This document shows, piece after piece, positions 4,709-56,605 of a stretch of 64,000 nucleotides of DNA. Under the pieces are notes generated by a model, which saw only the letters and a list, made by a program, of their open reading frames with translations, had not been told where the DNA came from and did not search any database. The stretch spans positions 372,001-436,000 of the forward strand of contig JBEWZL010000011.1 of NCBI GenBank assembly GCA_045837725.1. Direction: 5' to 3'. The stretch's first letter is position 1, and every line of letters starts with the position of its first letter. The translations under genes were made by a program, and so were the position numbers. The stretch comes from Vermamoeba vermiformis (lineage: Eukaryota).

Positions 4709-10473
<5,765 letters not shown>

Positions 10474-10948
10474 TAGGGAGGCTCTTTAATTGTTGTAAGT
10501 AATAAATTAGGTTCCACGATCGTAGAAAACATTTACTGCTCACGCGAGTGAACGATAATTAATTCACTCGTTGATTTATAAATAATACAGAAAGTGTGTG
10601 CGCAATAGTATTTTGTAACAACGCAAAGGAAAGTCGAAAAGTCTCCTGATAAAAACGAGCAATTTTTGGTTGAAAATTCAAAAGGCGCCAAAACTTGTTT
10701 ATCTGCCTTGAACGAACACTATTCAAAGTTATTTAATATGGTACTTGATATTTATTTATGGCAAAAATAGAAAGGCCTAATTTAGGCTCGAAATTCAGAA
10801 GCGCACTGCTTTCAAGATCTTTTATTTGAAAATGCGTGTTTATTTATTTGAAAGTGCGCCAACATAAAACCAGACGAGGTTCGACCAGCAATTTTTCTAG
10901 CATAAAGTGCAACAACGAGCTAGCTAATAGCAAATCCGAAGGACTCTA

Positions 10949-13900
10949 ATGGCCAGATACGGTTTAGTCAACCTTGAAAATGAATTATTATGCCCACTGC
11001 AATCTGTTAATGTATCATCCACTTTTGTAGACAGATTTGGTAAGCACTTTACATGCATCAAACGCCTCTTGTTCGTAACCTAATATTTTTCATTAGGATC
11101 CGCTGTAGTGACCCAAGTCTTCCAAAATAATAGTGATGATCCTATAGAAGCAGTATTTACGTTTCCAAAAGACGATCAAGCAGCAATAACAGGATTCAAA
11201 GTGAAAATAAATGACAAAACACTGATTGGTCAAATCGAAGCCAGCGATGAAGCACAAGAGAAATACAGTGATGCAATTGCGGAAGGCAAAGGTGCATATT
11301 TGCTCTCGCAAAAACGACCAGACATCATCTCTCTGTATATCGGTAAGTTTAACATCTTAAATTTTTTGATCGGATCTAACGAACAAATTTAAATTTGTTT
11401 AGGCAGCCTTTTACCGAACCAAAAAGTAACAATTGAGCTCAAGTACGTAATTGAAGCGCAATGGGAAGGAGATTCGTTAAGAATAACATTCCCAACGACC
11501 ATTGCACCTCGTTACACGCCTCAACAATTTCAACAAGACGAAGATCATAAATTAAATCCAGCTTATCATTCAAATGATAATACGCTGCCATATGACTTCA
11601 CATTCGAATCGTCAGTGCAATTAACGCTTGATACAATTTCATCGTTTGAATCTCCGACACACGAGTTCGATCTGACTTTATCGGGAGATCGAAAAGAGAT
11701 TAAAGTCGAAGCAAAGTTATATAACGGAGATAATTTGGCGAATAGAGACGTAGTTCTTATTGTCCATTCACATGAACGACAACAACGCAAAACACCAGTC
11801 ATGCTTGATGAAATTGACAAAAATGGGCATCACGCGCTGTACATCTCATTTATTCCAAAAATAGTAACGCAAGCTACAACACTGCCTCGAAGTCAATACG
11901 AGATTATCTTCTTAGTTGACAGGTAACACTTCGTTTGACACGTGTCATTCTGAAACTAATTCTTTTTTGATCAATAGAAGCGGAAGCATGTCCGGCGCAC
12001 CAATGGAAAACTGCAAGGCTGCGTTGTTACTCTTCTTACGGTCCTTGCCGAGCGACTCGTTCTTCAATATTGTCAGCTTCGGTACAAATCATGTCTCACT
12101 GTACAAAACACCTCAAGCTTACGACGATGCGTCGTTGGACTACGCTTCAAAGCAGGTGCAAAAATTTGGTGCCGATTTAGGTAAAGCAAATGAAATTTCG
12201 CTACATTTGATGCTGACGAACGATAGGTGGAACTGAACTATTTGCCCCGCTGAAACATATTTTAAGCGCTTCAAAACAAAAGAACAGAAAAAGAGTTGTG
12301 TTTGTCTTAACGGACGGCGAAGTTTCGAACTCTGGTCAAGTGATAGACCTGGTTCGTTCTCACGCCGCAACAACGTCAGTTTACACATTCGGCCTTGGAA
12401 ACAATGTCAGTAGGAACCTCGTTAATGGCATGGCCCAGGCTGGCAATGGTTACGCTGAATATGCCGCAAGCAACGAACGACTTCAACCTAAGATCATTCG
12501 ACAGGTAAAAATGTCATTTTATGACACTTTGACACTTTGACACGTGTCAACAGAATCTGCTCAAATCGTATGTTCTAACTTAGTTTTGCAGCTGAAAAGC
12601 GCCTTAAACTCATTTTCCGTGAAAGTTAATTGGAAATCAAAAGCCGTCAAAATGTTCCCGAACAACGTAATGCCAACAAACGAAGACGAGCCAGTTCACT
12701 TTATGGCCTTTATCGAAGATAACAATTACCTAAATAGGTAAGTGCAGCATTTAATAATCAATAACCTTTGAAAGTTTTTTAATAATTTTTTTAGCGTGAA
12801 GGAAATCGAACTGTTGTTGGAGGCTGACGGAAAGGCGTTTAAAACGGCAGTTCCGTTAAGTTCCGTAACGCAAATCCAAGGTGAAAAAATTCATCAGCTG
12901 TTCGTGAAGCACAAGGCTGATTCGTTAGAACGGGCTGCGCGACCAGAGAAGAAAAAGAAAATTCAAGAATTGTGCAAGAAGTATCGCGTGTTGTCGAATT
13001 TGACAAGTTTTTTGGTCGTAGAACGAAGAAATATTGCGACCGAAAAAACACCAAAACTAGTTGATGTGCCATTAGCCAAGCCTCAATTGAAAACTCAACC
13101 AACATCGCACCTCGGAAAAGCCAATTTTGTCGGCAACCATTCGTTCTGTGCATCTTATATCTCCACTATTGGCGTTGACTTCAAGATGACCAGCGTTAAT
13201 TTGGGCTCAGCTGGAACAGCTAAAGCACAAAACTGGGACACTGGTACGTATTTGACACTTGACATTTTGACACGTGTCATTCGGAGCTCGGATCGTCTCA
13301 TTGACACGCCAATTATTACAAATGATTATATACGAAAACATTAACGTAGAGGTTATTAATGTACTTTTTTATAGGTGGTCAAGAACGTTTCCGTTCGATG
13401 TCAACGAGTTATTACCGCGGAGCTAACGCCGTGCTACTCGTGTACAGTATTGACAGAAGCGACTCTTTCAAGCAAATTCAACACTTCTATAATGAAGCTC
13501 TTAACTCGTGTGGTCCCATCACCGTGTTCTTGCTTGTCGGAAACAAGTTGGATCTGCAAGCCCAGCGTCAAGTCTCATTCGACGAAGGCTTGGCTTGGGC
13601 TACACGTTACAACATTCCGTTCTTTGAAGTTAGTGCTAAAGACTTGTCGAATATGGCTGAAATGGTGCAAAGTCTTTACAATAACATGTACATGAAGCAA
13701 TGGGAAGACGGTGCAAGCTCAGTGAACTTTAAAAGTAAGTTCGGAAAAACTCGTTGAATTATTCCGTAGGTCTCTAACGGACTTTCCTTTTTAGGTGTTA
13801 CTGTCGGTGAGTCCGGCGTTGGCAAATCGGTCATTACTGAACGCATGTCTGGATTTTCGATCGATCTTAGCGACCTGGTCGAACGATATCCGCTTAGTAC

Positions 13901-14498
13901 CGGATCTTACAACACTAGTAATACTAATACTGGTTATACTCATACAAGCGCAAATTCGAATTCAAATTCTGGATCCAGCATGTTTGGCAAGCTTTGGAGT
14001 GGATTCACGGGACTTTTCAGTCGAAAAAGTGCCACTCAAACAGTCACAAGCTCAACGCCAGTAACTTCAGCGCCTATCAGAAACGATCAGATTAATAGTA
14101 ACTTTAACAACACTAATCAAAGTGCCGGGTCAACGCTTGGTCAAACAACCAGCAATAATAATAATTACAGCGCAAGTACGACTTCAAAGTTGTCGAGCAA
14201 GTCGATGGATGCAATGTTATTGTTACAAGAAGCCGCTGGCAATTGGAAATTGCATCAACATTTGGCCAAGTTGTTGAACATCGATTGGACTACACTCGAG
14301 TCGGCAAAGCCGAAAGAAATTACCGACGATGCGTGGATGACGTTGGTTTGCGTTGCTTATTTACACAATATTTGCAGCCAGCACAAGTCAGAATGGGAAC
14401 TGATCGTTCAGAAGGCTGAAAATTGGTTGAAAACTGTTGGTGCAAACAGATCTGAATGGAATCAACGTGCAAGACAGTTGATACAACAAAGTGTTTGA
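10949..14498 (+). CDS. VIT + vWA (vWA5A-like) protein with an inserted circularly permuted Rab-like GTPase domain, paralog 1
   Basis: VIT: PLQSVNVSS...VTQVFQNNSDDPIEAVFTFP. vWA MIDAS: D/RSGSM, VLTDGEV. GTPase motifs in order: STIGVDF, WDTG/GQE, NKLD, EVSAK, then FK/SVTVGESGVGKS. vWA5A-like tail: LLQEAAGNW...WELIVQKAENWL. Confidence 0.9.
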
Positions 14499-14584: not shown

Positions 14585-14667
14585 GCATCGGTGCCCGAGT
14601 TGGTCTAAGGGGTTGGATTAAGGCTCCAATATCTTCGGATGCAAGGGTTCGAATCCCTTCCGATGCA
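14585..14667 (+). tRNA. tRNA-Leu (anticodon AAG)
   Basis: Acceptor stem GCATCGG/CCGATGC-A, anticodon arm TTGGA-TTAAGGC-TCCAA, long variable arm, T-loop GTTCGAATCC, downstream TTTTT Pol III terminator. Confidence 0.95.
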
Positions 14668-15678: not shown

Positions 15679-15822
15679 TTGATAATTTCAAATTGTAAAT
15701 AAACTTCATCGCTTCTAGTTGAACTTTATCAAACGATCGGATCCTATGGTAAAGCGGCGCAACGTCAATTAAGAGCTAAGTATATTTATGAGTCCAATAG
15801 TAAATGCAACTATATTAAGAGC

Positions 15823-16994
15823 TTATTTGCGCAACAGAAGGGACAAAAAGTCGCTGGCGAAAGCGTTGGTGCAGGTCAACTTTGGATTCACCTTGTTGGG
15901 AGGAGCCTGAATAACAGCAACGTTAGTATTTCAATATAAATACTTAAGTGTATATTTTCTTACGTAGATGGAAGGAGAGAAGGGACCAGAAACGGTGTTG
16001 AAGAAGTTGAGTTGGAGATCTCCCAAGTACTCAATACCCTCAACGTCAATTTGGACAATAGTGGTGGTCTTAGTAGAGACCCAAATAGTGACAGGGGCAG
16101 TGTAGCCGAAGACAGCAGCTATTTACAAGAGTTAATAAGATGCTTTTTTTTTGACAGATCAAAACTCGTGTCAGATGGCCAGATCCGTGTCGTTTTCTTA
16201 CCTTCGAACTCCCAGCCAGTGCAAGGTTTACCAGCGACGACCTTGTTGCCGACGAATGAAGCATTGGAAGGCAATTGGAAGGGGAAGAAGATCAAAAGGG
16301 AGGCGGGAACAGAGCCTAAAAGGTACGTGTTCACATTAGTTCACGAACGGCAAAAACTTACGAATGGTAGGTTCACTGGAACTTTCCAAAATATCACAAA
16401 TCGATCATATACTAATGCCTTAAAGCTTAATATGACTTACCAAAGTTCCAGCACAAAGGACCTTCGTACATGTAACCTTGAAACGAGCAAGATTAATTAA
16501 AGATTTGGCAAGTTTCTCAAATTGGATTATGTCTCATACCAGTAGTAGTGCCTTGGCTAGCATCAGGGGAAGCAACGAGGTTGGTGTGGAAAGACAATGG
16601 AACATCTAAATGTCAAGAATGTCAGTCTTCAGCTCGATCGGATTTCGATCTGCACTTACACTCTTCACCACCGACTTCCAAGAAAGAACCAGCGTTGACG
16701 TAATCCAAAGCAAAGAATCCCGAGACAAAGACGGGAGAATCAGTTGGGGAAACGTAGCCAGGCAAAACAACTGTCAAAATCGTGAAATTAATTTCTGGAT
16801 CTGAATCATCGCTTATAATCTAGCCATGCATTAAACTGCACGTTGAACAATTTAAGGACAAATTTATTATTATTATTATTTTTAAACTTACGCGTGAAGT
16901 TGGTGTAGAACTGTTGAGGAAGCTTTGGCGGAGTTTGGCAGAAGGCAGTGCCAACGACGCAGAGAATAGCAGCGATAACGATAATCGATCTCAT
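15823..16994 (-). CDS. Secreted ependymin-related (EPDR/LolA-like) protein, copy A
   Basis: Signal peptide MRSIIVIAAILCVVGTAFC, then PPKLPQQFYTNF, FVGNKVVAGKPCTGWE, VTIWVS and FSPSIYAPP..C. Multi-exon, about 220 aa. Family call is from motif pattern only. Confidence 0.6.
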
Positions 16995-17682
16995 GTTTTA
17001 AGATTTGTGGCGCAGTGCTTATCAATAAACAAATAAAATCAAGAATAAAATCTGTTTTTGTGCTTGCCAAACTCTTCGCAGGAACTTTCTTTATGCACCT
17101 TGTCAGTCCACAAAAGCACTTTTGCGTATTAATTTTACGACCCTTATGCAAGACGAACTACGATTCAAAATATCTCGCCACTAGCCATTAATGTCAAGAT
17201 TATCGGTCTTTCCTCCGAAAATTATGATAATCTTATTATTATTATAATGTAATTATGGTATATATTTATGTAATAAAAAATTATTGCACCCATCAGTAAA
17301 GCGAGGTAGAACCGGAAGATCCAGCACCGAGTTTTCTTTGGCGCCAAGTATGATCACCATCAGCTAAGACGAAGGCTGGATTGACAATATACGTATGCTT
17401 GTGAAGCAAACATGTTCATACGGGATGCCCTTACAGAAGTCTATTCCAATTCAACTGCATCCGGATGATTTAAACCACAGCTTATGGCTTGCTTCGCTCA
17501 AATACTTGAAGCTATTAAAACGACGTACTGCTTAAGAAGCACCGCTTTATGACACATTTGTTACTTCTGGCTTCAGATCGACTGCTGGCCACCGAAATTT
17601 CAAATACACGTCACTTCTGGTCTATTCTATTGCCTTAAATAATCGCGATTTGTTTCTACTACTGCTAATTTGAACATAAACG

Positions 17683-20600
17683 ATGGCACAACAAGGGTTT
17701 ATCGACATTAAGACTGGACAGTTATGTCCTTTAGTTTCTCTTCAAATCCGATCCGCCTTCATCGATCGTTTTGGTAATATTCTTGATAATATACAGCTGT
17801 ATAAATAACTTAGTAATTTTTTTTCCTTAGGTTCTATTGAGGTTGTCCAAGAATACGAAAACACAGGCAAAAATCCGATAGAAGCAGTATTCACGTTTCC
17901 AAAAGACGATCAAGCAGCAGTAACAGGATTCAAAGTGAAAATAAATGACAAAACGCTGATTGGTCAAATTGAAGCCAGCGATGAAGCACAAGAGAAATAC
18001 AGGTGATGCAATTGCTGAAGGCAAAGGTGCATATTTGCTCTCTCAAAAGCGATCAGATATCGTAACTCTTTATATTGGTAAGTTTTATCGTGGTAAATTA
18101 CGCAAATCTTGTCATCTTTTGGATGCTGTGCTACATCTGGTCCCGAAAATATTTTCTAAATCTTACACCAACTTTAAAACAAATTAACGTAGCTTAAATT
18201 GGGTATAACAATTTATTCATGATTTTTCTCCACATTTATTCGTCTCATCTAACAAAAATCGGATTCGGATCTGACTTAACTTTTATTTAGGCAGCCTTTT
18301 ACCGCAACAAAAGGTTCAAGTCGAAATAACCTGCGTTACAGAAGCTCAATGGGAAGGCAAAGCACTTAGAATAACATTCCCAACGACCATTGCACCCCGT
18401 TACACGCCTCAACAATTTCAACAAGACGAAGATCACCAGATCAACCCCGTTTATCATTCAAATGATAACCAATTGCCATATGACTTCATATTCGAATCTT
18501 CAGTGCAATTAACGCATGATACAATTTCATCATTTGAATCTCCTACGCATAAATTTTCGGAGATCGACATCTCAGCGGATCGAACCAAAGTCAGCGCGAA
18601 AGTGCAGGCAAAGAAAGGAGATATCATAGCTGATAGAGATATCGTTCTTATAGTTCATGCCGATAAGAGATCGTTGCAAAAAATGCCGATTATGATTAAC
18701 GAAGTAGATGCAGCCGGACACCACGCACTTTATCTCTCGTTCATTCCAAAAATAATTTGTAACAAAATTTCGAAGAAAAAAATGCACGAAATTATATTTG
18801 TTATCGACAGGTAAGAAATTCAACGGTAATTTTAATTTCAAAAATTTTAGATCCAAATTTAAATTTTAATAGGAGCGGAAGTATGGACGGTCAGCAAATG
18901 AATTGTGCGAAAGAAGCTTTGCAACTATTTCTTCGTTCATTGCCCGCGTGTTTCTTCGACATTGTCAGCTTTGGATCGAACTTTCAACAAATGTTCGGAT
19001 CTCCTGCGCAATATTCTAACGAGTCTTTGGCGCAAGCTACTGAACAAGTGAAGAAATTTCAAGCTGATTTGGGTATGCTACAAAATTTGAATTTTAAATA
19101 TAATTTACTAAACGTGAGAATAAGGTGGTACGGAGCTTTTGCGGCCTTTAAGCCAGATCTACCAACAATCACCAAAAGGTGGCAAAAGAATCATATTCGT
19201 ATTAACAGGTACGACATATTAAATCACTCATATTAGTATTAAATTAATTCTTTTCTTTAGATGGTCAGATCTCGAACACGCGTCAAGTGGTGGATCTCGT
19301 CAAAAAGAATTCGGCCACAACTTCAGTATTCACGCTGGGAATAGGCGATTCTGTTAGTAGAGACCTAGTTAATGGCATGGCTCAGGCTGGCAATGGATAC
19401 GCTGAATATGCAACGGGCAACGAGCGACTTCAACCTAAGATCATTCGACAGGTAAAATGTCATTTTATGACACTTTGACACTTTGACACGTGTCAAGTTG
19501 AAGTTTCTTAGGTCACGTTTTACAACCTTAGTACTACATTTAAATCGATGATAGATTATTTTGAATGCTAGAAATGACTAACCTATGAAATGACAGTTGA
19601 GGCGTGCCCTTGAAAACTTCTCCGTTGAGATTGATTGGCATTCACGAACGGTAGAACAATTCCCAGAACATATTTCTCCGATCTCTGACGAAGATCCGTT
19701 GCACGTGATGGCATTTGTTGACGACTCGTACCTTCGAAGGTAAAATTTAATCCCTTCTAAATGAGTTCCAGGTATTAATTCTTTTTTATTCTTAAAGCAA
19801 CAAGAAGATTATGATTAAAATCAGTTGCGATGATAATAATGAATATTCGATCCCGTTTGATCTAGCTCAAATGAAGACAGTCCGCGGCAACAGAATTCAC
19901 CAATTATTTGCTAAGAAAAAGGCTGATACAATGAGTTCCGATGCAACCAACAATAAGAATCAAATTCGCAATCTGCAAATATTGTGCAAAAAATACACCG
20001 TGCTGTCAAACGTCACAAGTTTCGTACTAGTCGAACAACGAAAAATTGCTACAACGACCACGCCAGAGCTCGTAAATATTCCGCTTGCCAGACCTAAGCC
20101 TGCGCCGTTGACAGCTCAAACAATAGTGACCAATGGCACCGTGTCACTTGGCGGAAAATTCTCAATGAATTACAAAGCGACAATTGGCGCAGATTTTGCT
20201 ACGTGCAGAATAGTATTGGCTGATAGAGAAGTGAGGGTGCAACTATGGGATCCATGTAAGTATCATTCGTTCATGAACCAAATTTTCACTGAACTGACTT
20301 CGAAATTTTTTCACAGCCGGATCTGAACGATTTGGTGGACCGTCGAGAATATTTTATAGTGGTACATCTGCAGCTGTTATTATGTACGATGTGCATTCTC
20401 GACCTTCATTTGACAACGTGAAAGATTGGATTGACAAATTGACCGTGCAAGCTGGATCCGACATTCCGATGGTTTTAGCGGGCAATAAGATTGATAAAGA
20501 TGGTCAAAAAGTTTCAACGGGAGAAGGCCAAAAATTAGCAGATTCATTGGGCATTGCTTTCTTCGAAATTTCCGTGAAAGATACCACGAACATGGGTGAC

Positions 20601-21335
20601 TTGGTGAAACTGCTCTTCGCTACTATGATATTGAACGACCCTAATAATACTGTGCTTAAAGGTAGGCCGACACCTATAATAATAGTTAATAGATCTAAAG
20701 GGGTTTTAGTTATTATTCTCGGAGATTCAGCCGTCGGAAAAACCAGTTTCAACACGAGACTTGCCGGATCCACCATCAACTTGAGCGACATCGACACGCG
20801 AAACTTAATAGGCTCTCAAAGTACTACTCAAGATACTCAAGCCCAGGATAATAATGGCTCGTTACTTGGAAAAGTATGGCAAGGCTTCAAAAGCGTGGTT
20901 GGTTATTTCAGCGGATCCAGATCTACAAATGACGCGTCAATTGCGACTACGAATACGAATAATACAAGCAATAATACAAACACCGTGCTTGTGCAAAAGC
21001 CACAAAAAGTCATGGTGCAGTTGCCGCCCAAGCAAAAAAAAGTCGATTTGAATGCTATTATTTTGGCGCAAAACGCTGAAGGCGCTTGGAACATCAACGC
21101 AGCCGAATCAGTTCAGCTTTTTGGATCGGATCTGACAACTCAAGCACCGCAAGGAGTCAAACAAGATATTTGGACGACGATAGTTTGCATCGCTTATTTG
21201 ACGGTCAAATGTAGCCAGCACAAGTCAGAATGGGAATTGATCGTTCAGAAGGCTGAAAATTGGTTGAAAACTGTTGGTGCAAACAAATCTGAATGGAATC
21301 AACGTGCAAGACAGTTGATACAACAAACTGTTTGA
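17683..21335 (+). CDS. VIT + vWA protein with circularly permuted Rab-like GTPase, paralog 2; apparent +1 frameshift near 18002
   Basis: Same architecture as 10949-14498: ATIGADF, WDPS/GSE, NKID, EISVK, LK/VIILGDSAVGKT. AAATACAGGTGA versus paralog AAATACAGTGA puts TGA in frame (real lesion or sequencing indel). Confidence 0.85.
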
Positions 21336-21421: not shown

Positions 21422-21504
21422 GCATCGGTGCCCGAGTTGGTCTAAGGGGTTGGATTAAGGCTCCAATATCTTCGGATGCAAGGGTTCGAATCCCTTCCGA
21501 TGCA
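21422..21504 (+). tRNA. tRNA-Leu (anticodon AAG), identical to 14585-14667
   Basis: Identical cloverleaf sequence followed by TTTTT. Confidence 0.95.
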
Positions 21505-22002
21505 ATACCTTTTTGCGTACTAGATCGAAGGTACGTGGCCTATTAATGTTACGTAAATCCAGCGAATCAAACCAAGAAAACTGATTTTAAAATATTACTC
21601 ATGCATAAAATAATATTTAATATTTCTTGTTGGTTGAAGCAAAACGCGATAGAAAAACGTTAGCCTTAGTTTTTTTTTAAAATTGCTGCAAAATTATTGG
21701 CTGCCTATTTTTAAAATGGACCAATGAGATTTTACCGGCCCTATATAGATATGCCCCTAGCGACCGCTAAAAGATTCAATAACTGATACTAAGCCGAGTT
21801 CAACGAGTTTGAGACGTCGATCGATTCCCTTACTCCCTTTCCATTTTTGGAGTGAACCCTGTTACTCTATTGGTCCGCATTATTTTAAGAGCGGCCAATT
21901 ATATCATTAGGCACCTCCCGATTGGCCAAGAAAAAAATCGATTTAACCTTAAAACGTTTTTGGATCTTGTTCATTGATAAGCACTGAAGACAATCTTAAA
22001 AC

Positions 22003-23193
22003 ATGAGATCGCTCATTGTTATCGCAGCTATTCTCTGCGTCGTTGGCACCGTCTTCTGCCAAACCCCGCCAAAGCTTCCTCAACAGTTCTACACCAACTT
22101 CACGCGTAAGTTTAAAAATATACTAATAAAATTGTTAAAATTAATAATAGAGAAATTATCTGTCGCAGGTTATCCTTAATTATGCGTCCGCAATAATTTG
22201 CGTTGCTTAACGATCGGAGAGGATTAAGATCGAGAGTATTAATTTTAATGAATTTTGTGCCAGTTCGTTTTCCTAGCTATTCTTCACCGACTGATTCTCC
22301 CGTCTATATCGCGGGATTCTTTGCTTTGGATTATGTTAACGGTGGCGCTTTCTTGGACGTCGGTGGCGAGGATTGTAAGTGCGGATCTGATGCGGATCGC
22401 GCTGCAGACTAACGCTCTCGCCTATTTAGATATTCCTTTGTCTTTCCACACCAATCTCGTTGCTTCTCCTGATGCCAGCCAAGGCACCACCACTGGTACG
22501 AGCCATAATTTAACTTACGAAACTTAATTAATCCTTTTCGTTTCAAAGGTTACATGTACGAAGGTCCTTTGTGCTGGAATTTTGGTAAGTCATATAAAAC
22601 CATATTGTACGATCGTTTGTGATTAATTGAAATTCTGCCAATGTTAGTAATTTTGCGATTAATGAACTAATGCGAACACGTACCTTTTAGGCTCTGTCCC
22701 TGTCTCCATCTCGAGTTTCTTCCCCTTTGAATTGCCTTCCAATGCTTCATTCGTCGGCAACAAGGTCGTCGGGGGTCAGCCTTGCAGTGGCTGGGAATTG
22801 GAAGGTAAGAAAATGACGCGGATCTGCCCGTGTGACACGAGTTTTGAAATCGTCAAAAAAAAGCATCCAATCATCTTATTAATTCTTGTAAAAGCTGCTG
22901 CTATCTTCGGCTACGTTACTCCCATCACCGTTTGGATCTCTACTAAGACCTCTAATATTGTCCAAATTGACGTTGAGGGTATCGATTACGTGGGCGAACT
23001 CCAAATCAATTTCTCCAACACCGTTTCTGGTCCCTTCTCTCCTTCCATCTACGTAAGATAATATTCTCCTACATTTTTATATTGAAGTACTAACGCTGCT
23101 GTTATTTAGGCTCCTCCCAACAAGGTGAATCCACAGTTGACCTGCACCAACGCTTTTGTCAGCGACTTTTTGTCTCTTCTGTTGCGCAGATAA
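22003..23193 (+). CDS. Secreted ependymin-related protein, copy B
   Basis: Paralog of copy A with the same exon structure: MRSLIVIAAILCVVGTVFC...PCSGWE...CTNAFVSDFLSLLLRR*. Confidence 0.6.
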
Positions 23194-23309
23194 GCTCTTA
23201 AAATAGTTACGTGTACAATTAGACCATAAATATACTGAGGCTAACTCTTGATTTCGTGGCGGTAACGTTTGACGCCCGATACGCTATATTTTTTGACGTG
23301 ATTTACTTT

Positions 23310-23451: not shown

Positions 23452-23774
23452 TTGATTCGATCTCCTTTTAAAATTAATGCGAAGGAGATTCAAGAGATGA
23501 AAGTGTATCTTGCGTTAATTGCGTTGATGACAGAATATGAAGGGAGCACAATTTGAAAGACCAGCAGGGGATCGGTACAATATAATTTATAGTCTTGGCT
23601 CCTTTTCAATTGTATTCCATAACAATTTTTCTATTAATTTTTTAGAAGGACTTCGCATAAAGGGCGTTAATTAATACGAAGGAAAGTTCCTGAGAAGAGT
23701 ATGGCTACAACCACAAAAATCTGATTTTATTCTGATTTTATTGTTTATTAATACGCTGAACCACAAGCTTAAAC

Positions 23775-24939
23775 ATGAGATCGATTATCGTTATCGCTGC
23801 TATTCTCTGCGTCGTTGGCACTGCCCTCTGCCAAACCCCGCCAACGCTTCCTCAACAGTTCTACACCAACTACACGCGTAAGCTAAGCAATAATAATCAT
23901 AACAAATTGTGTTCAATATGGCCACGCGCAATACGCTTTCTAAACAATGAGACATTGTTTCCAGATCGAGTATTAATTTTTACGAATTTTGTACCAGTTG
24001 TTTTGCCTAGCTACGTTTCACCGACTACTGCTCCCGTCTATATCTCGGGCTTCTTTGCTTTGGATTACATCAACGCTGGCTCTTTCTTAGAAGTTGGTGG
24101 TGAAGAGTGTAAGTTGCAGAATCTGATCTAAATCTGATCGAGCTGCCGACTAACGTTCTCGCCATTTTAGATATTCCGTTGTCGTTCCACACTACTTTCG
24201 TTGCTTCTCCGGATGCTAGCCAAGGCACCATCACTGGTACGAACCTAACCTAACTAATGAAACTTTAATTAATCCTTACTGGTTTCAAGGTTACATGTAC
24301 GAAGGTCCTTTGTGCTGGAACTGGGGTAGGTTATATTAAACCATCGTATACGATTAATTTGTGATACATTGGAAATTACGGCGAACCAGCCCAATGCCAT
24401 TAATTTAGCGGTTTTTGCGGTTCATGAACTAATGCGAACACGTACCTTTTAGGCTCTGTTCCTGCCTCCCTTTTGACATTTTTCCCCTTCCAATTGCCTG
24501 TTAATTCTTCATTCGTCGGCAGCAAGGTCGTCGCAGGTCAACCTTGCACTGGATGGGCGTTCGAAGGTAAGAAAGTGACGCAGATCTGACAGTCCGACGC
24601 GAATGTTGAAATGTAGAAAAGCCCTAATAATTCTTGTAAATAGCTGCTGTCTTCGGATACACTGCCCCTGTCACCATTTGGGTCTCTACTAAGACCACTA
24701 ATATCGTCCAAATTGACGTCAAGGCTGTTGAATACTTGGGAGAACTCCAACTCAACTTCTTCAACACCGTTTCTGGTCCCTTCTCTCCTTCCATCTACGT
24801 AAGATAATAATCGCCTACATTTTTATATCGAAATACTAACGTTACTGTTGTTAAGGCTCCTCCCAACAAGGTGAATCCACAGTTGACCTGCACCACCAAC
24901 TTCTTCGGCGGCTTTTTGTCCCTTCTTTTGCGCAAATAA
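23775..24939 (+). CDS. Secreted ependymin-related protein, copy C
   Basis: Paralog of copies A and B with the same introns; ends CTTNFFGGFLSLLLRK*. Confidence 0.6.
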
Positions 24940-25135
24940 GCTCTGAATATAGTTGCAATTACTGGTAGACTCATAAATATACTTAGCTCTTAATTCGACG
25001 TTTTACTGGTTAACTAGATCCGATCGTTACGACTTGAAACATCGCTAAATGTTCGCTAAATAATAATATCTACATTATTTCATATATAATTGCTCTCGGC
25101 ATATTATTTAGTATTATTACAATTATAAGTTTGCG

Positions 25136-31331: not shown

Positions 31332-31779
31332 CTGAGCACAAAACATTTTAAAATGAAAACAATGCTGAACTCTCAACAACACAACATAAATTGCACGATT
31401 GTAATTGCAGTATTTGATGCTAAATTAACTCAAAGGCTGAACAGAAAGCAGATCTAGTAAAATTTTCATTTGACTTTGATTTTACCGCCCTCAGCACGTG
31501 TACCTCGCAGTTAATAGTGAGTATTTTTAGATAACTTCAACAGTATAATATGGTTGCAACCATTACGCATGTATTCATTGCTATCTTTATTAAATTAAAA
31601 AAATTCAATAGCAAATCAGATTTGACTCGCTATCAGTTTCTTTTCCTTTAAATGCTGCTGGATAATTAACAATATAGAAAGCATTTTTTTAAAAAATAAT
31701 CCAGTGCTAAATCCGTTTTTTTTGAACGCGATCAGATGCTGCTCGGAGCTCCACAAATTAGATATGACCTGGTCTGTAC

Positions 31780-32700
31780 TAGCACAACGAGCAAGTCACA
31801 AGTAACAAGCTCGTGCAAGCGCACGACAAGATCGTTTCAGCCACCAAACAAACGATACGTAAAAAACAAAAAGATCAGCAGCGCTTTTCGTTGGTCCCAA
31901 CTCCGTAATTTCAATTCATTGATGCCTTGTTTGGACGAATATCAAAAGTGTAAGTAAGTTAAGGTATTATCATCCACGACACGACCTAACGTACAATTAC
32001 TATTTTAAGGCTATTTCATGAAATGAAACTACTTTCAGACCGAATCTTCGTGCTCAATCTCCGTTAATTATGGCTCGTTTTTGAAAGTATATTCTCGGAG
32101 TTATAACCGCTCCCAAGCTACTTCGGTAAGACCATCCACAATAACGCATGTTTTATTGCCATTTTAAGGCGATTTCAATTTCGATTGGGACACGTGTCAA
32201 TTTCCCAACAGATTTTTTGACTTCGCTCAAATCTCCGCTCGAACATCAATTTCAAAGCTTTACTGACGATGCTATTTTAGGACAATACGTACTGCGGAGA
32301 TGAAGAAGAGCATTGATCAACGGATAACTGCGCTGTTTGTGCGATTGTGTCGGAGAATCAATCACCGAGACAATGATCAAGCTCCGCTGAAACAACGCGA
32401 GTCAATATAAACGCCAGTCATTCATGAACGAGTTCCGTTGGCCAGCAGTATCTTGTCGCGCGATGATGAATTTGACCATTTATGGTAAGTGGTCTCGTTC
32501 GCATAAATAAGTTCTCATTTCGATTCATTTTGATTTGTGATCACTTTGAGATGACTCTCGACACACTTTCTAGGGGGCTCTCAAGCGCGTTGTTTCAAAT
32601 TGATGTTTGATCGATCGCGCTGGCTCCGTTATTACGTCCCTAGAGAGTGTCTCCGGAGTCATTTCGAAGTCGTTACAACTGCACTAGGCATAATAATTTA
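31780..32700 (+). repeat. Dispersed spliced non-coding module, copy A
   Basis: High identity to 39060-39960(-), 43215-43830(-), 44999-45255(-) and 56606-57152(+). GT-AG introns conserved; indels between copies are not multiples of three. Confidence 0.85.
32535..32678 (+). ncRNA. Candidate intronic pre-miRNA-like hairpin, copy A
   Basis: Stem of about 42 bp (TTGTGATCACTTTGAGATGACTCTCGACACACTTTCTAGGGG pairing with TCCCTAGAGAGTGTCTCCGGAGTCATTTCGAAGTCGTTACAA) inside an intron starting GTAAGT at 32485. Confidence 0.6.
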
Positions 32701-34620
32701 CAGTTCATTAGGTCTCACCAGGTACTCCTTTGTTATATCTGCAAAACATGTTGTTCAAAGTAAGTAATACGGAACGAAACAACGACGTTTAGTTATTAAT
32801 AATTTATTCAGACAAAAAGCTGCGATCGCTAGAAGCAACTAAGCTTTGATAATTTTTGAACATCCATATTCGCTGTAGTCCCTATGTAAGTTCGATTAGC
32901 CTCTCTAAAGTCATTCTTTTTTGGATGCGGATGCGATCTAATTTTGGCGTCAAGTCAAATTGATTCTAAATTATTATGTTAGGCTTGCGACAACTTTGCT
33001 GTCAAAATCCGTTACGACTGGATACGGCTTGTTACGGAAGAAGATTGGTAAGTTCAAATAATATTTTCATAAATTACTCGAAATTAGTTAGATTATTCGT
33101 CCGTCCAATTCTCTTTGTATTCGTTCAATTGTGTTAATAGTTATTTGTTATAGACTTCGCGATTCAATTTTGCATGAATTCCTTTGACACAACACAGCCC
33201 TAACATAATTAGTTTCGTAAGTACTTAACGCGCAGTACCACTCAAGTTCAAATTCTAATCAATTGCGTAGGATTAATTCGTTCATGTCTCGCACATAAGT
33301 CTGATCGTAGGACTTGTCTGTATGTTCTGTGAACGTTCCGTTGATACAAGGTGGCAGCGGATCGCGCCGCGCTTCGTCAAGCCGTCTGCACCAAATTGCT
33401 GCCTTGAAGCGAAAATGCACCAAGTACTACACGCATCTACAGTACCAAGGCAGAGAGACAAGTTACTCAATCATCAAGGTCGAAAAGCTGCCTGAATGTA
33501 CCCTGCTGCTCTTAACAGTTCGGTACGTACGATAAACCCCGTTAAAACAGTTGTTTAATTCATTATAATTATTCTAATAATAATATTCTTTAGAGGTTTC
33601 AAATCAAGACTTGCATTTCGGCAGCAGGACAAAACTACAACATAAAATGATCAACACGACTTCCTGGACCGTGCACGCACCAACGCCTCTTCACCCTAGA
33701 ATTCTCCAGCCACAATGATGCCCAGGTTCATAGTCTATGCTGTTCACCACGTATTCAGGACGAAGCGACAAAACGAAGAGGAGAGTAGTACTGTTCCAAA
33801 CAAGGTAATTAAGTTTATTATCGCAACAGATAAAATATTTATTATTTTTATCAGGCATTCGCACATCAACTGCAATAAGCCATGGCCATCCACTGAAACA
33901 AATATTGCGATGTATACTCTTTGTAGCTATGTAAGTATTATCCGTATTATTCGTACAAAGTACTAGCGCTAACCAATCGACAGACCAAGTTCAGCAGAAT
34001 AGCTTCAAGCCTTCAGAGTGGAGCTGCAGCAAGGAACTGACGCGAGGCAATTGGACAAGTAATACACACTTCAATTGTATGAAATTTCACAACAATTTGA
34101 AGGTAAGGTGTGACAACTACACACGACACGAGTGTAACTAACTCACGAGTTCATTTAGTCGCGACGTTCTTGAGACGTAGCAGCTCAGTATTGTACGGAT
34201 AAAGAGATACGGTACGTTAACCTTAACCAAAGTCTTAACTAATCATCATTAATGATTACTGAAGAACGTAAGATATTCTACCTAATTTTTGCGGAGAACT
34301 AATCGTTTTTTGTGAGGCAGCTCAAGACTCAAACAAAGCAACATTTACACACGATGAATTATATGCTGTTTAACGCGATGCTTATATTTGTAAGGATTAC
34401 GAACGCATCCGACAAAACTTTACGATCCAGAGTGCCTAACGCTCTTCTTTGCGTCAATAGAATAAATTTAGTAGAATTATTCTCTTAACAGAGCTTAGGT
34501 GTATCAGCAATAGCTTTTTCAATAATGCTTCGTAGTAACCTTGATATCAGAGACTTTGTTATTTAGAATAAGATGCGATACAATATTTAGCACGAGTAAT
34601 TATATTGCCTATTTGTAGCA

Positions 34621-39059: not shown

Positions 39060-39960
39060 TGGTAAGTAGTTGTAACGACTTCGAAATGACTCCGGAGACA
39101 CTCTCTAGGGACGTAATAACAGAGCCAGCACGATCGATCAAACATCAATTTGAAACAACGCGCTTGAGAGCCCCCTAGAAAGTGTGTCGAGAGTCATCTC
39201 AAAGTGATCACAAATCAAAATCAATCGAAATGAGCACTTATTTATGCTGCGAACGAGTCCACTTACCATAAATGGTCAAATTCAACATCGCGCGACGAGA
39301 TTTTGCTGGCCACGGAACTCCTTCATGAATGAAAAGTTGATTTACGCATGAACCAATTCACTGCGGAGTTGAAGATCGTGGTCTAGCTGAAGATCTGGGA
39401 GCCAACGATGAAAACTGCGTTGTCTTCCGTTAATCGATTCAAATATTATTCTCGCAAGTACGAATTGTCCTAAGATAGAATCGGTTAAAATCTTTCAGAT
39501 TGGCGGAGATTTGAGCGAAGTCAAAAAAATCTGTTGGGAAATTGACACGTGTCCCAAAGCGAAATTGAAATCGCCTTAAAATGGCAATAAAACATGCGTT
39601 ATTGTGGATAATCTTACCGAAGTAGCTTGGGAGCGGTTATAACTCCGAGAATATCTTGAAGAAACGAGCCATAATTAACGGAGATTGAGCACGAAGATTC
39701 GGTCTTAAAGTAGTTTTCACGAAACGGCCTTAAAATAGTAATTGTACGTTAGGTCGTGTCGTGGATAATAATACCTTAACTTACTTACACTTTTGATATT
39801 CTGCCAAACAAGGCATCAATGACTTGAAATTACGGAGTTGCGACCAACGAAAAGCGCTGCTGATCTTTTGTTTTTACGTTCGCTTGTTTGATGGCTGAAG
39901 CGAGCTTGTCGTGCGCTTGAGCGAGCTTGTGACTTGTTCGTTGTGCTAGGACAGACTAGG
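39060..39960 (-). repeat. Dispersed spliced non-coding module, copy B
   Basis: Reverse-complement match to 31780-32700. Confidence 0.85.
39070..39213 (-). ncRNA. Candidate intronic pre-miRNA-like hairpin, copy B
   Basis: Arms identical to copy A; two substitutions, both in the apical region. Confidence 0.6.
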
Positions 39961-40657
39961 TCAAGAAATGCGCGCTTAGAAGAATACTAGTCCTGCCAAA
40001 TCCGCAGTTTTTCTAGAAAGATTTTTTTTAAGGATTAGTAATCAATTTGCTTCATATATTTTAATAATCAAATCAAAGTATTCCCATTGTTATTGAACGA
40101 GCAGAGTTAGATCGAACTTCCGTAATAAATTAAATATTAAAATCCTTTCAAATCGATATTACCACGTATGATATAATATATATTATATGTATTATGTATT
40201 ACATGTATTATAAATTAATCACTAATTAAATGAGCGCTGTCGACAGCGTTCGACTTACAAAATCTCAATCCAATGCTAGATCATCGCACATGTGCGTTTT
40301 AAATTGACTAGTCCTTTTTTCAACGCCAATTTACCTTGGACTTGAAGTGAGACATTTGTGTTTACGGCGATAACATCTTTAAATGATAATCGGTGGTCTG
40401 AAAAAGGGCGATCAGTCGCTCTCCCAAACATACATAAGCATTTTGACTGAACCAATTAACGTCATTGATATTTTGATATTAAAGCGGTCTGGCTTCGCTC
40501 GCGATCAGTTTTAAAATAGTAAAACAAATTCCCGATTCCGCTCCGCTCGACCAGGATCGCTTTTGGTCCGAAAGTGCTTTTCACTTCGACGAATGCACTC
40601 AACGCAATAATACCTTCAAAATTAATTATACGCATTAGTTTATACTGCAAGGCTTTC

Positions 40658-42350
40658 ATGTCAACAAAGGATGGGGTAAAAAATTTTGATCAGATTATCG
40701 TTCACGAGCATTGTTTTGCAACTAATTAATTAAATCACCTAAAAATATGATTAACATCATCAGATATTAATAAATTTTTAGGCGCAAATTGTAGCTGATG
40801 GGAAGGAGCTCAAAGTTGAAGAGCTGTACAAATCCAAGTTGCACTTTGCCGAGTGGAGAAAATGGACACTTGCATTGGCAAATGAAAAAGGGCATATGTT
40901 ATCGATAGAAAAGGCATTATACATATTAGAGACGTATCCTAACTCTGCAACGGCGATCCGTTTTTATGGTGATTTTAATTGGCAGTTGCATCCAACGCAG
41001 CTCAAAAGACTCAAAAAAATAATAATTAATTCGAAGAAAATTGAAAAAGTGTGGTTTGATGCGCCAATAACAGCGATGCAGACGGTTCGCAAAGCACTCG
41101 AGAAAAACACCAGCGTAACAACTCTTAGTTTCTCATTCACGTTTCCGACAATAGAGCCGTTAAACTTCACTAAAGAAATTACGAAAATGATTAAAAATAA
41201 TCCGAGAATCAAACGGATCACAGCAGCGTACGAGCAAAAGTCAGAAAAATTCTTGACCACAATAATGGCAGCAGCGAGCTGTAATCCATCTATAGATTCA
41301 TTTGGCATTTCTGAGAAGACTAGTCTATTTGAAGGCATTTATTTAGGAAATAGATTGGATCTGATCCGAGATTCGTTGGCGAAAAATCCGAATATTACCG
41401 AATTCATTCTTGGAAAGTGCTATGTATTTGAAGAGACATTACTTGGAGAAATTACGGATATTATTAAGCAAAACAAGCTCAAAATATTTGGTTTTAATGG
41501 CACGCTTCGAACACATTATCCAAACGTTGTGGATCTGACCAAGTTTATTTCAACGATTCGACTATCGTCATTAACAACTCTGAACCTAGTATGTGATCAT
41601 TTCCAAGCTGATTTTATTGCAGATATCATTTCTATTCCTAATATCAAGACTTTATCGATGAACATGGTTGGAGAAGCGAATCTAGTCGCAAAAGCATTAG
41701 CGAAAAATACAACGTTAGAAACGCTTAATTTGGCATGTAAAGACGTCCATTGGGTAGACCGCGAATCTAATCGCGAATTTTTTGGAGCTTGGAACCAACA
41801 TCCGACGTTAAAGTCGTTTTCTCTTACAAGAACGATTTTGGATGTGGATCTTGAAACAATTTCAAATTTGCTCGGTGGAAAGCATTCATTAACTAGTTTA
41901 GATTTACCACAATTAGAAATAGGATCCCATTTCGAAAAACGAAAGCATGCTGCGCTTATCTGCGAGAAACTACGATCGAACCAAAAAATCAAAAAACTTC
42001 GGATCTCCCTGGAAGGCGACAAAAAACATCAAAATGCATTATTTCAAGTCGTATCACAACATAGCTCATTGACTTCATTCGATATTGGGTTTAGCAAAGA
42101 TTTATTAAGAAAAACAGTTATCGATCTAGATTCGAAAAACTTATTCCGACTACCAAACAATGAAATCGGTGACATTTTGGCATTATTGGTAAGAAATAGA
42201 GAATACAGAATGAATATTATACTCGCTATCAAAATTATTCAAAAATCATTTTGGACCTCGTTGCCAGCGGAACTGTGGGTTAAAATAATTGATTATTTGA
42301 CGTACGGACTCTCAATCGATTATCCGAAGCTATTAAATATCGAGAAATAA
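40658..42350 (+). CDS. RNI-like leucine-rich-repeat protein with C-terminal F-box-like motif
   Basis: Exon 1 MSTKDG, intron 40676-40781, then one long exon with ALEKNTSVTTLSF, ALAKNTTLETLNL and HSSLTSFDI repeats; ends FWTSLPAELWVKIIDYL. Confidence 0.8.
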
Positions 42351-43214
42351 GTCATATGTAAAGCAGTTACGTTCGTACTCTTGACGATCCGAATAGTACA
42401 AAATTTTTATTATATCAGTAGCAGACAAATAAAAAGTGTATTTGGTATTCAGTTAGTTCAAAGTACTAAATAACTCAAGGCAGAAATACGTGAATTTATC
42501 ACTGGTGCGTTGCAGATAGTACGGCCGCAGGTGTTGCGATTGGCTCTTCAAAGAGAATTAGTTCGTGATTAACTTGCTTTTTAATAATATTGTTAAAAAT
42601 ATTGAGATTGCTTACTCGTCTGTCTTGATTGTGAGAGATCGAAGCCTGGAGCTCGTCCATTAACCCGCTGGCGCAAAGGGTTCGGCGATATTGGCGTAAA
42701 GAAGTTGAGTTCCGAGTAGAAGTCGCTGAAAAAGTCAATAAAAATTATCTCGATCAAAAACGATTCAAAGGATTATCTTACATTTTAGCGCTGCCATAAA
42801 ACCGAGAATGGATCTCGGCACGAAAGTTCGCAATGGCTTACAACGCACGTGACTACCAATATGGCACTGCATTTCGTATTAACATTCGTAGTATGGCAAT
42901 AGTGGAGGCTAAAATATTAAACGACTGTTAATTGATGAACGAACGCTTTCTTTAGCTAAAGACTGACCGTATTAAATTCTTTTTTGTTTCGATTTTGTCG
43001 CTATTATTGTTCATTTTGTTCCATTTGAAATGCAAGCAGATAAAAGAAGCAAAGGTTGAATTACATCCTATCAAAATAATTACCTTAAATAGATCGCGCA
43101 CGAGTAGGATCTATTAAATATAACTATATTTTAAACTTAACGTACCTGAGAATGTTTCTATTGGAGGTTGTAAAAGAAGTTTGCTGTAATGAATCGCGAC
43201 ACGAGCTGTGGTCG

Positions 43215-43830
43215 CAGTTGTAACGACTTCGAAATGACTCCGGAGACACTCTCTAGGGACGTAATAACAGAGCCAGCACGATCGATCAAAACATCAATTT
43301 GAACAACGCGCTTGAGAGCCCCCTAGAAAGTGTGTCGAGAGTCATCTCAAAGTGATCACAAATCAAAATCAATCGAAATGAGCACTTATTTATGCGAACG
43401 AGATCACTTACCATAAATGGGAAAATTCATCATCGCGCGACAAGATCCTGCTGGCCACGGAACTCGTTCATGAATGACTGGCTTGTAAATTGACTCGCGT
43501 AGTTTCGGCGGAGCTTGATTATTGTCTCGGTGATTGATTCTCCGACACAATCGCACAAACAGCGCAGTTATCCGTTGATCAATGCGCTTCGTAATCTCCG
43601 CAGTACGTAATGCCTTAAAATAGAATCGGTTAAAATCTTTCAGATTTGGCGGAGATTTGAGCGAAGTCAAAGTTCACGAAAACACTCTTGGGAAATTGAC
43701 ACGTGTCCCAACCGAAATTGAAATTGAATCGCCTTAAATAGTAACAATGCGTTGTCGTGGATGATCTTACCTTGCGCATGCTTTTGATATTCTTCCAAAT
43801 AAGGCGTCAAAGACTTGAAATTAACCATCT
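43215..43830 (-). repeat. Dispersed spliced non-coding module, copy C
   Basis: Reverse-complement match to the copy A module. Confidence 0.85.
43218..43361 (-). ncRNA. Candidate intronic pre-miRNA-like hairpin, copy C
   Basis: Arms identical to copy A; differences confined to the apical region. Confidence 0.6.
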
Positions 43831-48406: not shown

Positions 48407-49131
48407 CTACAGTAAATCCATTACAACGATCAAACGACTAGTCGTCAGTCAGATGTACTTGAATATGCTACAAAAGTCTGAAAGTGAGCTAAATTATTAA
48501 TATAAAAACCAGCAGGATTTAAATTAATGATATATTTACATCCAGAAAGAGTTGCGTGGCTAATGAAGTTCAGATTTATCCAATCCACGAGATATATCCA
48601 AGGCTCAAGTAAACGAAGGTAGGTTTTTTATTGCCTATTTATCTCTGGTAAAGATTGCAAATACCGTAAAAATCTTAATTTTATAAATATACGTAAAACT
48701 GAAACGGAATTGTCGTAGCCGAATTACAATGGTGTTAATTCTGAAATTTCCTGCGTTTTTTGATCGGTCCAGAAGCTTCTGAGAGTGTGCACTATGACAG
48801 CTTCAAAAATTCTTATGAACTTTCGCAAGTTTTTATAGTTAGTACCTCATTAATAGGATATGAAGAGCTCACTCCACTGCTCTTTGGCATCGGATCGGAT
48901 CCAAAATAACATCTTATTGCAAAAGTTTATCAGAGGTCAAATGGTTTATGCATAAAACCGAGGTAAGGCATATTGTACACAACGCAAAACAATCGACCTT
49001 GCAATTTTCAAGTAATTTTTTTCAACGGAAGTTTCAGTCCACAAATGCAACTAAAAAAAGAAGTTTCGTTTTTTAAACTAAATCTAAAGTTGCAATTTTA
49101 TTTCAATTCTAACGTACGACAATCAAATAGG

Positions 49132-55839: not shown

Positions 55840-56605
55840 GCTCGAAAATACTCGTGCTTAATTTGTATCGTATTTTAAACATTATTCTCATAACAAAGTC
55901 TCTGATATTAAATAAAGTCGATCTTGATGAAAAACTAACGTTCGATCCACGTTATTTTGGTGCGACATTCAAAAATCATGAACCTAAATATTCTTAGTGC
56001 TCCAGAACTAGATACTAATGCTCCATTCAAGCGTAATCTTTCAAACGTAACACATTAACGAAGTTTTATCGTGCAGCGAGTAAAGATACGCTTTGGGCCA
56101 AGATCTTTACTCAGATTTGCTGGACACAGTTTTCGTGAGTATTAATTTATTAAAATAATATCATGCTCATGCAATCTATTATTGCTATTTTTATCCTTAA
56201 ATAGACGCTAGAGAATTAAAATTTTTTTGTTGATCGAATCTGTATTGGGTCTTATTCAGCCTTCATGTTAAAACAATCAGCTTATTTAATCAAATATTTA
56301 AATTAATTTTTCAAATGCTAGTAACTTCATAGCTCCATCGTCTTGCAGAGTTGGATCTAACTAAACTTTTTCCTTAGTTCAGGTGGTTCGCCATATCATT
56401 GATAAAGCCGTTGCCCGATACAACAGATTCAGGTAATGTCCACGGGGTAGTTAAATCGACAAAAGAACCTTAAAATTCGTCTCGATCAGACTTGATCCAT
56501 TCATGGATTTTTCAACCGTAGATTCTGGAGTTTCAAAACGCAATTATAGCTCGTTTGTGAAAGTATAATATGGAGTTACGACCACTCCCAAGTCGCTATA
56601 AGGTC

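Follow-up and report, generated by a model that had tools for sequence, protein, structure and literature searches.

A predicted circularly permuted Rab-type G domain inside two tandem VIT-vWA proteins of Vermamoeba vermiformis

A 64-kb stretch of the Vermamoeba vermiformis genome (assembly GCA_045837725.1, contig JBEWZL010000011.1, positions 372,001 to 436,000; referred to here as the window, in whose own coordinates all positions are given) carries two neighboring genes, gene 1 and gene 2, each predicted to encode a VIT-vWA protein with an internal Rab-type G domain whose motifs run in the order G2-G3-G4-G5-G1. We consider it probable that this is a genuine circular permutation of a Rab-family G domain, in which switch I, beta2, beta3, G3, G4, G5, helix 5, a linker, beta1, the P-loop and helix 1 follow one another between the VIT-vWA body and a C-terminal domain; this reading takes in an inferred binding of nucleotide, an origin by tandem duplication and a tether formed by switch I. 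Sequence comparisons and one structure prediction together support a third permuted type of G domain, derived from a Rab and housed inside a VIT-vWA protein.

The window has a GC content of 0.39 and very short GT-AG introns, and both genes lie on its forward (+) strand. Gene 1 (10949-14498) has a predicted coding sequence of nine exons (10949-11039, 11097-11342, 11403-11922, 11978-12180, 12227-12504, 12592-12737, 12795-13243, 13375-13734 and 13795-14498) and 998 amino acids. Its junctions were picked as GT-AG pairs by reading frame, lack of stops, consensus donor and similarity to the paralogue, and the eight resulting introns are 46-131 nt long with a GC content of 0.21-0.38 vs 0.43 in the exons. 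Joining segments 13144-13243, 13375-13734 and 13795-13860 by coordinates gave a single open frame. An earlier interpretation of this DNA made without database searches (the sequence-only reading) had claimed the order G2-G3-G4-G5-G1, and all the motifs it named are present in the frame of the joined segments.

The G domain of gene 1 (about residues 587-800) is entered through a linker from the host protein (13069-13155), where the phmmer and Pfam alignments start and which ends in GNHSF, residues equivalent to the last part of helix 1 and the first part of the switch I loop. Next come G2 in switch I (YISTIGVDF, 13156-13182), with its conserved Thr, and the beta2-beta3 hairpin up to the start of G3 (13183-13243), which aligned to Rab1 up to residue 65. 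G3 (13237-13385; DTGG then QE, with the catalytic Gln kept) is interrupted by intron 7 (13244-13374; 131 nt, GTACGT..TATAG), which splits the codon of its second Gly. G4 (GNKLD, 13539-13553) and G5 (VSAK, 13629-13640) are followed by helix 5 and a short linker to beta1 (13641-13734), a segment aligned to the C-terminal part of Rab14/Rab2 in which the linker itself takes up about 8 residues. Beyond intron 8 (13735-13794; 60 nt, GTAAGT..TTTTAG), which is absent from the paralogue, lie beta1 and the G1/P-loop (13795-13829; GESGVGKS at 13806-13829) and then helix 1 (13830-13853) with an exit segment, IDLSDLVERY (13860-13889; helix and exit segment together 13830-13889), that is conserved in gene 2. 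The five motifs of gene 1, from G1 to G5, are thus GESGVGKS, STIG, DTGG, NKLD and SAK, and the canonical G1-G2-G3-G4-G5 order of Rabs is not what was found, with G1 placed after G5 in both paralogues.

The claim that no P-loop lies upstream of G2 was confirmed by pattern searches. A relaxed Walker A pattern, [AG]x4GK[ST], has a single match in the 998 residues (residue 769) and none in the three forward frames of unspliced 10900-13150. The strict Walker A pattern gave seven matches over six frames of the window, among them 13806 and the paralogue's 20721; two others belong to ABC transporter nucleotide-binding domains, two contain an internal stop and one has a stop 7 residues upstream. Both G-domain introns proposed in the sequence-only reading have GT..AG ends and leave the frame open after joining. 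Intron 8 is not readable through because it holds an in-frame TGA (13755) and TAG (13767), and its retention would end the protein before the P-loop. Alternative choices for this intron did not change the motif order: all eight stop-free, frame-keeping GT-AG pairs leave the P-loop GKS downstream of G5, two of the eight clip the first P-loop Gly, and a consensus donor is found only at 13735-13794. An LGKA region upstream of G2 was considered as a possible remnant of a first P-loop; the Pfam alignment starts at position 14 of the Ras profile, but that of phmmer only at GNHSF, and the region amounts to a weak hint.

The same order was found in gene 2 (17683-21335), a tandem paralogue with the same architecture that encodes 984 amino acids if read across a one-base frameshift near 18001. 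Its G2 (20171-20197), G3 (20249-20327, interrupted by an intron at 20256-20316), G4 (GNKID, 20481-20495), G5 (SVK, 20571-20579) and P-loop (GDSAVGKT, 20721-20744) give the motif set GDSAVGKT, ATIG, DPSG, NKID and SVK, from G1 to G5. The last exon is an uninterrupted open reading frame (20298-21335, 345 aa) that runs from the remainder of G3 through GNKID, SVK, helix 5, a 22-residue linker, beta1, GDSAVGKT, helix 1 and a low-complexity linker to the C-terminal domain. Since this exon has G3, G4, G5 and then G1 within one reading frame and one polypeptide, the placing of G1 behind G5 characterizes the family and is not a product of the gene model. Compared with gene 1, gene 2 has an extra vWA intron (19209-19260) and no intron before the P-loop.

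The sequence-only reading had predicted two out-of-order partial matches to the Ras family. Two out-of-order stretches were found in the gene 2 reading frame, where a phmmer search of the Protein Data Bank (PDB) with residues 1-164 of the last exon aligned query 1-95 with Rab3 residues 81-176 and query 131-155 with Rab3 residues 26-50 (conditional E = 1.1e-4). On the P-loop exon of gene 1, the Pfam Ras profile gave no match at E ≤ 0.1. The P-loop of gene 2 also drew a sub-threshold match to Pfam RsgA_GTPase (23.8 bits vs a cut-off of 30), and in the ESM Atlas the last exon met generic small-GTPase clusters only, at 0.80, the level of a lead. When prokaryotic genome contigs were scanned with the gene 2 stretch, 117 pattern stretches matched, and tblastn confirmed none of them.

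The position of the cut was taken from where Rab similarity begins. Pfam PF00071 (Ras) aligned residues 110-149 of exon 7 with profile positions 14-55 (E = 0.005, alone below the cut-off) and residues 1-104 of exon 8, with G4 inside them, with positions 57-160 of 162 (E = 6.5e-30). In gene 1, similarity of the 57 residues preceding intron 7 to Rab1A/B begins at Rab1B residue 31 (query position 21/22, E ~1e-4); in gene 2, similarity of the corresponding piece to Rab7/Ypt7 begins at residue 30 (E of 1.2e-7 to 2e-6 for the best 13). With N-terminal Rab similarity thus beginning at residue ~30, the new N-terminus is the end of helix 1. The alignments support a cut at the helix 1/switch I junction, with the new C-terminus after the trailing helix 1. 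This is where the sequence-only reading had put it, with beta1, P-loop and helix 1 after helix 5, and its further statement, a direct attachment of switch I to the chain of the host protein, can be read off the sequence.

The Rab-like assignment made in that reading also stands, as Rab, Ypt or Sec4 names are found on 59 of the 60 best listed PDB chains for the G3-G5 piece of each gene. The best matches of these pieces were Rab14, Rab2, Sec4 and Rab5 in gene 1 and Rab3, Rab1 and Ypt51 in gene 2. By these comparisons the G domain is Rab-type, not Ras-type, and nearer to Rab than to Ras, Rho, Arf or Ran sequences, but of no single Rab subfamily. As a separate observation, switch I is Rab1-like in gene 1 (13156-13182; 11 residues identical to Rab1, with Rab1/Rab35/Ypt1 as the best matches of the piece) and Rab7/Ypt7-like in gene 2 (20171-20197), and the rest of each domain does not follow the subfamily of its switch I. 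This difference may stem from convergence, from conversion by canonical Rab genes or from an ancestral polymorphism.

To model the domain, the exon pieces of gene 1 were given to ESMFold2 as separate chains (47, 119 and 36 aa) together with guanosine triphosphate (GTP), the P-loop piece being the scored partner. This partner reached a median score of 0.81 vs 0.02 for the best of three controls, with at least 95% of contacts common to the runs and a partner pLDDT (predicted local distance difference test) of at least 81. In calibration, on a set that was microbe-based and ligand-free, 51 of 78 solved complexes attained the same mark, as did 2 of 108 mismatched pairs. Among the lowest-error contacts of the model, beta1 (VTVG) meets residues 19-24 of exon 8 (VLLVYS, beta4), V8 of the P-loop meets N56 of NKLD, residues 12-16 of helix 1 meet A87 of SAK, and beta3 (residues 44-47 of the first piece) touches the P-loop exon. 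The exit segment lies on helix 5, with L24 and Y31 against Y101, Y105 and W109, and residues 112-119 of exon 8 touch the next exon. These contacts agree with the canonical strand order of the Ras-like sheet, 2-3-1-4-5-6, and in the model the trailing beta1, P-loop and helix 1 take their normal G-domain slot, between beta4 and beta3. By docking the P-loop exon onto the other two pieces, ESMFold2 gives a plausible complete G domain; the result speaks of the likeness of the pieces to a complete Rab, not of folding in the cell. AlphaFold2 runs on the uninterrupted 164 residues of gene 2 gave mean pLDDT values of 48.3 (single sequence) and 46.4 (three-row alignment of window sequences), the P-loop part being below 40 in both, too low for a usable model in either direction.

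The protein in which this domain sits has a VIT domain in exon 2 (11099-11341; Pfam PF08487, E = 1.4e-22) and then a vWA domain (11918-12504), matched by Pfam VWA_3 (PF13768) in exon 4 (7e-11) and exon 5 (1.4e-09) and by VWA (1.5e-06). The DxSxS motif of the metal-ion-dependent adhesion site (MIDAS) reads DRSGS in gene 1 (residues 285-289) and spans intron 3. With a VIT domain followed by a MIDAS-bearing vWA domain, the gene 1 product is a VIT-vWA (VWA5A-like) protein, and the Pfam matches to both families uphold the earlier placement of the G domain inside such a protein. C-terminal to the G domain lie a low-complexity linker rich in Ser, Thr and Asn (13890-14201), with one conserved hydrophobic motif (13980-14006), and a conserved host domain (14202-14495) that belongs to no Pfam family; exon 9 as a whole matched none. 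In the ESM Atlas, the C-terminal 104 residues fell into unnamed clusters at 0.95-0.96, two of the three listed being mostly chordate. The linker motif has the form G-K-L/V-W-x-G-F and recurs at ~20860-20890 in gene 2, inside linkers that are otherwise unalignable between the paralogues; it may be a short linear or amphipathic motif.

Rabs carry a C-terminal Cys motif for geranylgeranylation. The gene 1 product has no evident signal peptide, its G domain is internal, and its last 30 residues, ending in QQSV, contain no Cys. Because of this lack of Cys, prenylation of the gene 1 product is not possible, and the ordinary Rab membrane cycle of prenyl group and GDP dissociation inhibitor (GDI) is therefore ruled out.

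The two paralogues differ in how far their parts have diverged. The permuted G domains share 63 of 186 aligned positions (34%), the VIT and vWA domains are ~60-70% identical, and at the 12 fixed positions of G1-G5 an allowed residue is found in both copies at 12 of 12 and the identical residue at 11 of 12. At the DNA level, identity rises to 92% over part of the VIT exon (11139-11350/17873-18085) and 94% over the C-terminal domain and a downstream tRNA (14334-14679/21171-21516), and blastn of gene 1 against gene 2 gave no match across the G domain. This mosaic suggests an old duplication whose ends were homogenized later, as by gene conversion. The tRNA in question, tRNA-Leu(AAG), lies at 14585-14667 and 21422-21504, some 90 bp past each paralogue's stop codon and within the duplicated block.

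The features above can be combined into a possible mechanism. From motif conservation, the domain would be expected to bind guanine nucleotide. Gene 1 would still hydrolyze it, given that the catalytic Gln after DxxG is kept, and gene 2, with Ser in its place, would be slow or locked. The permutation likely arose from a tandem Rab-Rab duplication in which the first copy lost beta1 to helix 1 and the second lost switch I and everything after it. The residues after helix 1 in gene 2, which align weakly to the start of Rab1 switch I (2rhd, query 131-160), fit this origin. The two chain ends would exit the domain next to each other, where helix 1 and switch I meet, a geometry suited to insertion in a host loop. 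Switch I would then be a direct tether to the VIT-vWA body, with its Thr clamped by GTP/Mg, and such clamping would be expected to shorten or stiffen the tether because both ends exit next to switch I. The outcome could be a nucleotide-gated switch built into a MIDAS-bearing scaffold, instead of recruitment by a free, prenylated Rab. Mechanical coupling of nucleotide state to the VIT-vWA module is the least supported step of this proposal.

Several observations weigh against a genuine, working permutation. Both G-domain splice junctions of gene 1 are predicted from DNA alone. Besides escaping the Pfam Ras profile, the P-loop exon of gene 1 searched alone (36 aa) by phmmer against the PDB drew 14 matches at E ≤ 10, all to the Walker A of ClpA/ClpB/Hsp104 (E of 0.27-1.9). 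Gene 2 has one extra G near 18001 relative to gene 1, which shifts the frame of the VIT exon while the remaining 984 codons are open and which may be an assembly error or the mark of a very young pseudogene; it also has Ser for the catalytic Gln after G3 and SVK instead of SAK. No relatives were seen outside the window, in a scan that covered prokaryotic contigs. The ESMFold2 job included an unscored ligand, GTP, unlike the calibration, and its passing score may reflect a memory of the abundant solved Rab structures.

A more far-reaching version of the permutation reading is possible, and we hold it tentatively, leaning toward doubt. On this version, the P-loop GTPase fold would have been permuted in nature a third time, independently of the other two cases and for the first time in the Rab family. 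The chain would be opened precisely where the P-loop/helix 1 unit gives way to switch I, making the nucleotide-sensing switch I the physical tether to a VIT-vWA scaffold. The paralogues would be self-contained, prenylation-independent Rab mimics with Rab1-like and Rab7-like switch I, which link an adhesion-type module with a MIDAS to the Rab1 and Rab7 regulator/effector networks under GTP control.

It is unlikely, in our judgment, that the domain folds in permuted form and merely holds nucleotide as a permanent structural cofactor, with no cycling and no coupling. The missing catalytic Gln and the SVK of gene 2 would agree with this, as would the faster evolution of the G domain relative to VIT and vWA and the lack of a prenylation site, which makes the usual membrane/GDI cycle inapplicable. 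However, gene 1 retains the Gln, the Thr of switch I and a switch II region like that of Rabs; over 11 residues its switch I equals that of Rab1, and the switch I of gene 2 is close to that of Rab7. The Rab1- and Rab7-like sequences suggest that the switch surfaces are still under selection.

The locus could also be the relic of a tandem Rab-Rab fusion, in which G2-G5 form a P-loop-less pseudo-GTPase without nucleotide and the downstream beta1, P-loop and helix 1 are the decaying start of a second Rab that is not folded back. Circular permutations in general are expected to arise through tandem duplication, gene 1's P-loop exon taken by itself is not recognizably Rab-like, the residues past helix 1 in gene 2 align weakly with the start of Rab1 switch I, and AlphaFold2 did not place the P-loop segment, all of which would suit a relic. 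Yet all that comes after helix 1 is low-complexity sequence and then the C-terminal domain of the host, with nothing Rab-like and no Pfam match in exon 9; beta1 and the P-loop are intact in both paralogues despite the 34% identity of their G domains; and the ESMFold2 model places the segment in its canonical slot with a score far above the controls. We regard a relic as distinctly unlikely and prefer the folded, permuted domain.

An artefact of gene model or assembly, with the P-loop exon belonging to another transcript or the locus being chimeric, appears very improbable. The exons are predicted only, and the 60-nt intron 8 keeps the frame while holding two stops, so that its retention ends the protein before the P-loop. 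Against this stand the same order, intron-free, in gene 2, a frame that runs from the P-loop into the C-terminal domain common to both copies, and a donor and acceptor of intron 8 that resemble those of gene 1's other seven introns. That the proteins are ordinary members of the cpRAS family, with which they share the fusion of a permuted small GTPase to a vWA-containing protein, is scarcely credible given what the available text of Elias and Novotny (2008; PMC2430557) says of that family, since the cut is at helix 1/switch I here and at beta2/beta3 in cpRAS, G2 is Rab-type here and a Ras 'TIE' there, and the G domain is C-terminal to VIT and VWA_3 here and N-terminal to a zinc finger and a Sec23/24-trunk-type vWA there.

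Other features of the window were recorded alongside the two genes. A 12-bp palindrome, TGACACGTGTCA (CACGTG core), has 15 sites at ≤1 mismatch in the window vs 0.13 expected (3126, 5745, 11936, 12538, 13268, 19484, 48045, 58894 and 58934, plus six one-mismatch sites). Introns of the two VIT-vWA genes contain four of the sites, one of them in intron 7 of gene 1, and several sites are preceded by TGACAC-like half-sites; the palindrome may serve as a site for a transcription factor or represent a small repeat element. Upstream of gene 1, ABC transporter exons lie on the minus strand at ~5800-9300 (ABC_membrane at 6e-23, 2e-16 and 3e-15; ABC_tran at 1e-06), with Walker A sites at 5842 and 8103. 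Dispersed repeat families of 78-92% identity, some of them inverted, flank both genes (15732-17092, 21967-23239 and 23679-25028) and recur at 31765-32710, 39068-39963, 43214-43771 and 56542-57161. They are probably transposon remnants, and reading frames inside them matched no Pfam family. Two long open reading frames, 40782-42347 (522 aa) and 48967-50802 (612 aa), had no Pfam match at 1e-4, the second containing internal tandem repeats between 49441 and 50477.

Among known proteins, the host part resembles the VIT-vWA proteins (VWA5A, the inter-alpha-trypsin inhibitor heavy chains and PARP4), which likewise have an N-terminal VIT domain and then a vWA domain with MIDAS. We know of no GTPase domain in any of these. 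With YlqF/YawG and RsgA/YjeQ the domain shares a P-loop GTPase fold and a non-canonical order with G1 after G5, but those are ancient, universal ribosome-assembly factors and not Rab-like; the sole link found is the sub-threshold RsgA_GTPase match over the gene 2 P-loop. We found neither a G2-G3-G4-G5-G1 order nor a permuted Rab described in the open full-text literature, and no paper that combines VIT, Rab, GTPase domain and domain architecture; the matches listed for 'cpRab' were CprABC or the chloroplast CPRab, not a permuted Rab.

Two permuted types have been described, and the available text of Elias and Novotny (2008; PMC2430557) agrees with the account of both in the sequence-only reading. 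According to that text, the YlqF/YawG (YRG) proteins have the order G4-G5-G1-G2-G3 with the cut between beta3 and helix 2, which Anand et al. (2006) took as the sole feasible permutation. The second type, cpRAS, has the order G3-G4-G5-G1-G2, is cut between beta2 and beta3 and belongs to the Ras family ('TIE' G2). The cpRAS domain lies near the N-terminus, ahead of a linker, then a putative zinc finger and then a Sec23/24-trunk-type vWA, or else it is inserted in a COG2373-like protein (PMC2430557). In the available parts of two later sources, a 2026 paper mentions CPRas just as a possible gene of the last eukaryotic common ancestor (LECA) and a 2019 preprint mentions only the CP-type PROSITE class.

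Measured against these accounts, as far as they are available, the order in gene 1 and gene 2 matches neither type. Unlike YlqF/YawG, the domain has G2 and G3 before G4 and is Rab-like. It resembles cpRAS in being a permuted eukaryotic G domain of the Ras superfamily, with helix 5 joined to beta1, in a large vWA-containing protein whose function is not known. It is unlike cpRAS in its order, G2-G3-G4-G5-G1, in which G2, beta2 and beta3 precede G3, in a G2 of Rab type (TIGVDF in gene 1, TIGADF in gene 2) where cpRAS has 'TIE', and in an architecture with VIT and VWA_3 first, the G domain next and a further C-terminal domain last. If the permutation is real, this would be a third break point, with the P-loop split from switch I, and the fold would tolerate ends at yet another loop, offering a natural precedent for GTPase-based sensors with ends beside the switch region. 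Moreover, a permuted small GTPase would have been combined with a vWA domain a second time, apparently independently, and this hints at a functional logic that recurs.

Closest in sequence to the domain itself are the canonical Rabs (Rab1/Ypt1, Rab7/Ypt7, Rab14, Rab2 and Rab3), which matched each piece best apart from the P-loop exon of gene 1. They share its five G motifs and, with gene 1, the Rab-type residues of switch I and switch II. Whereas canonical Rabs are stand-alone proteins of ~200 aa that run from G1 to G5 and end in a prenylated C-terminal Cys, here the domain is permuted, internal to 998 aa and without a C-terminal Cys, and its subfamily assignment is inconsistent between the pieces. 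It may represent a case of a Rab-type switch held within a larger polypeptide, operating without prenylation or a GDI cycle.

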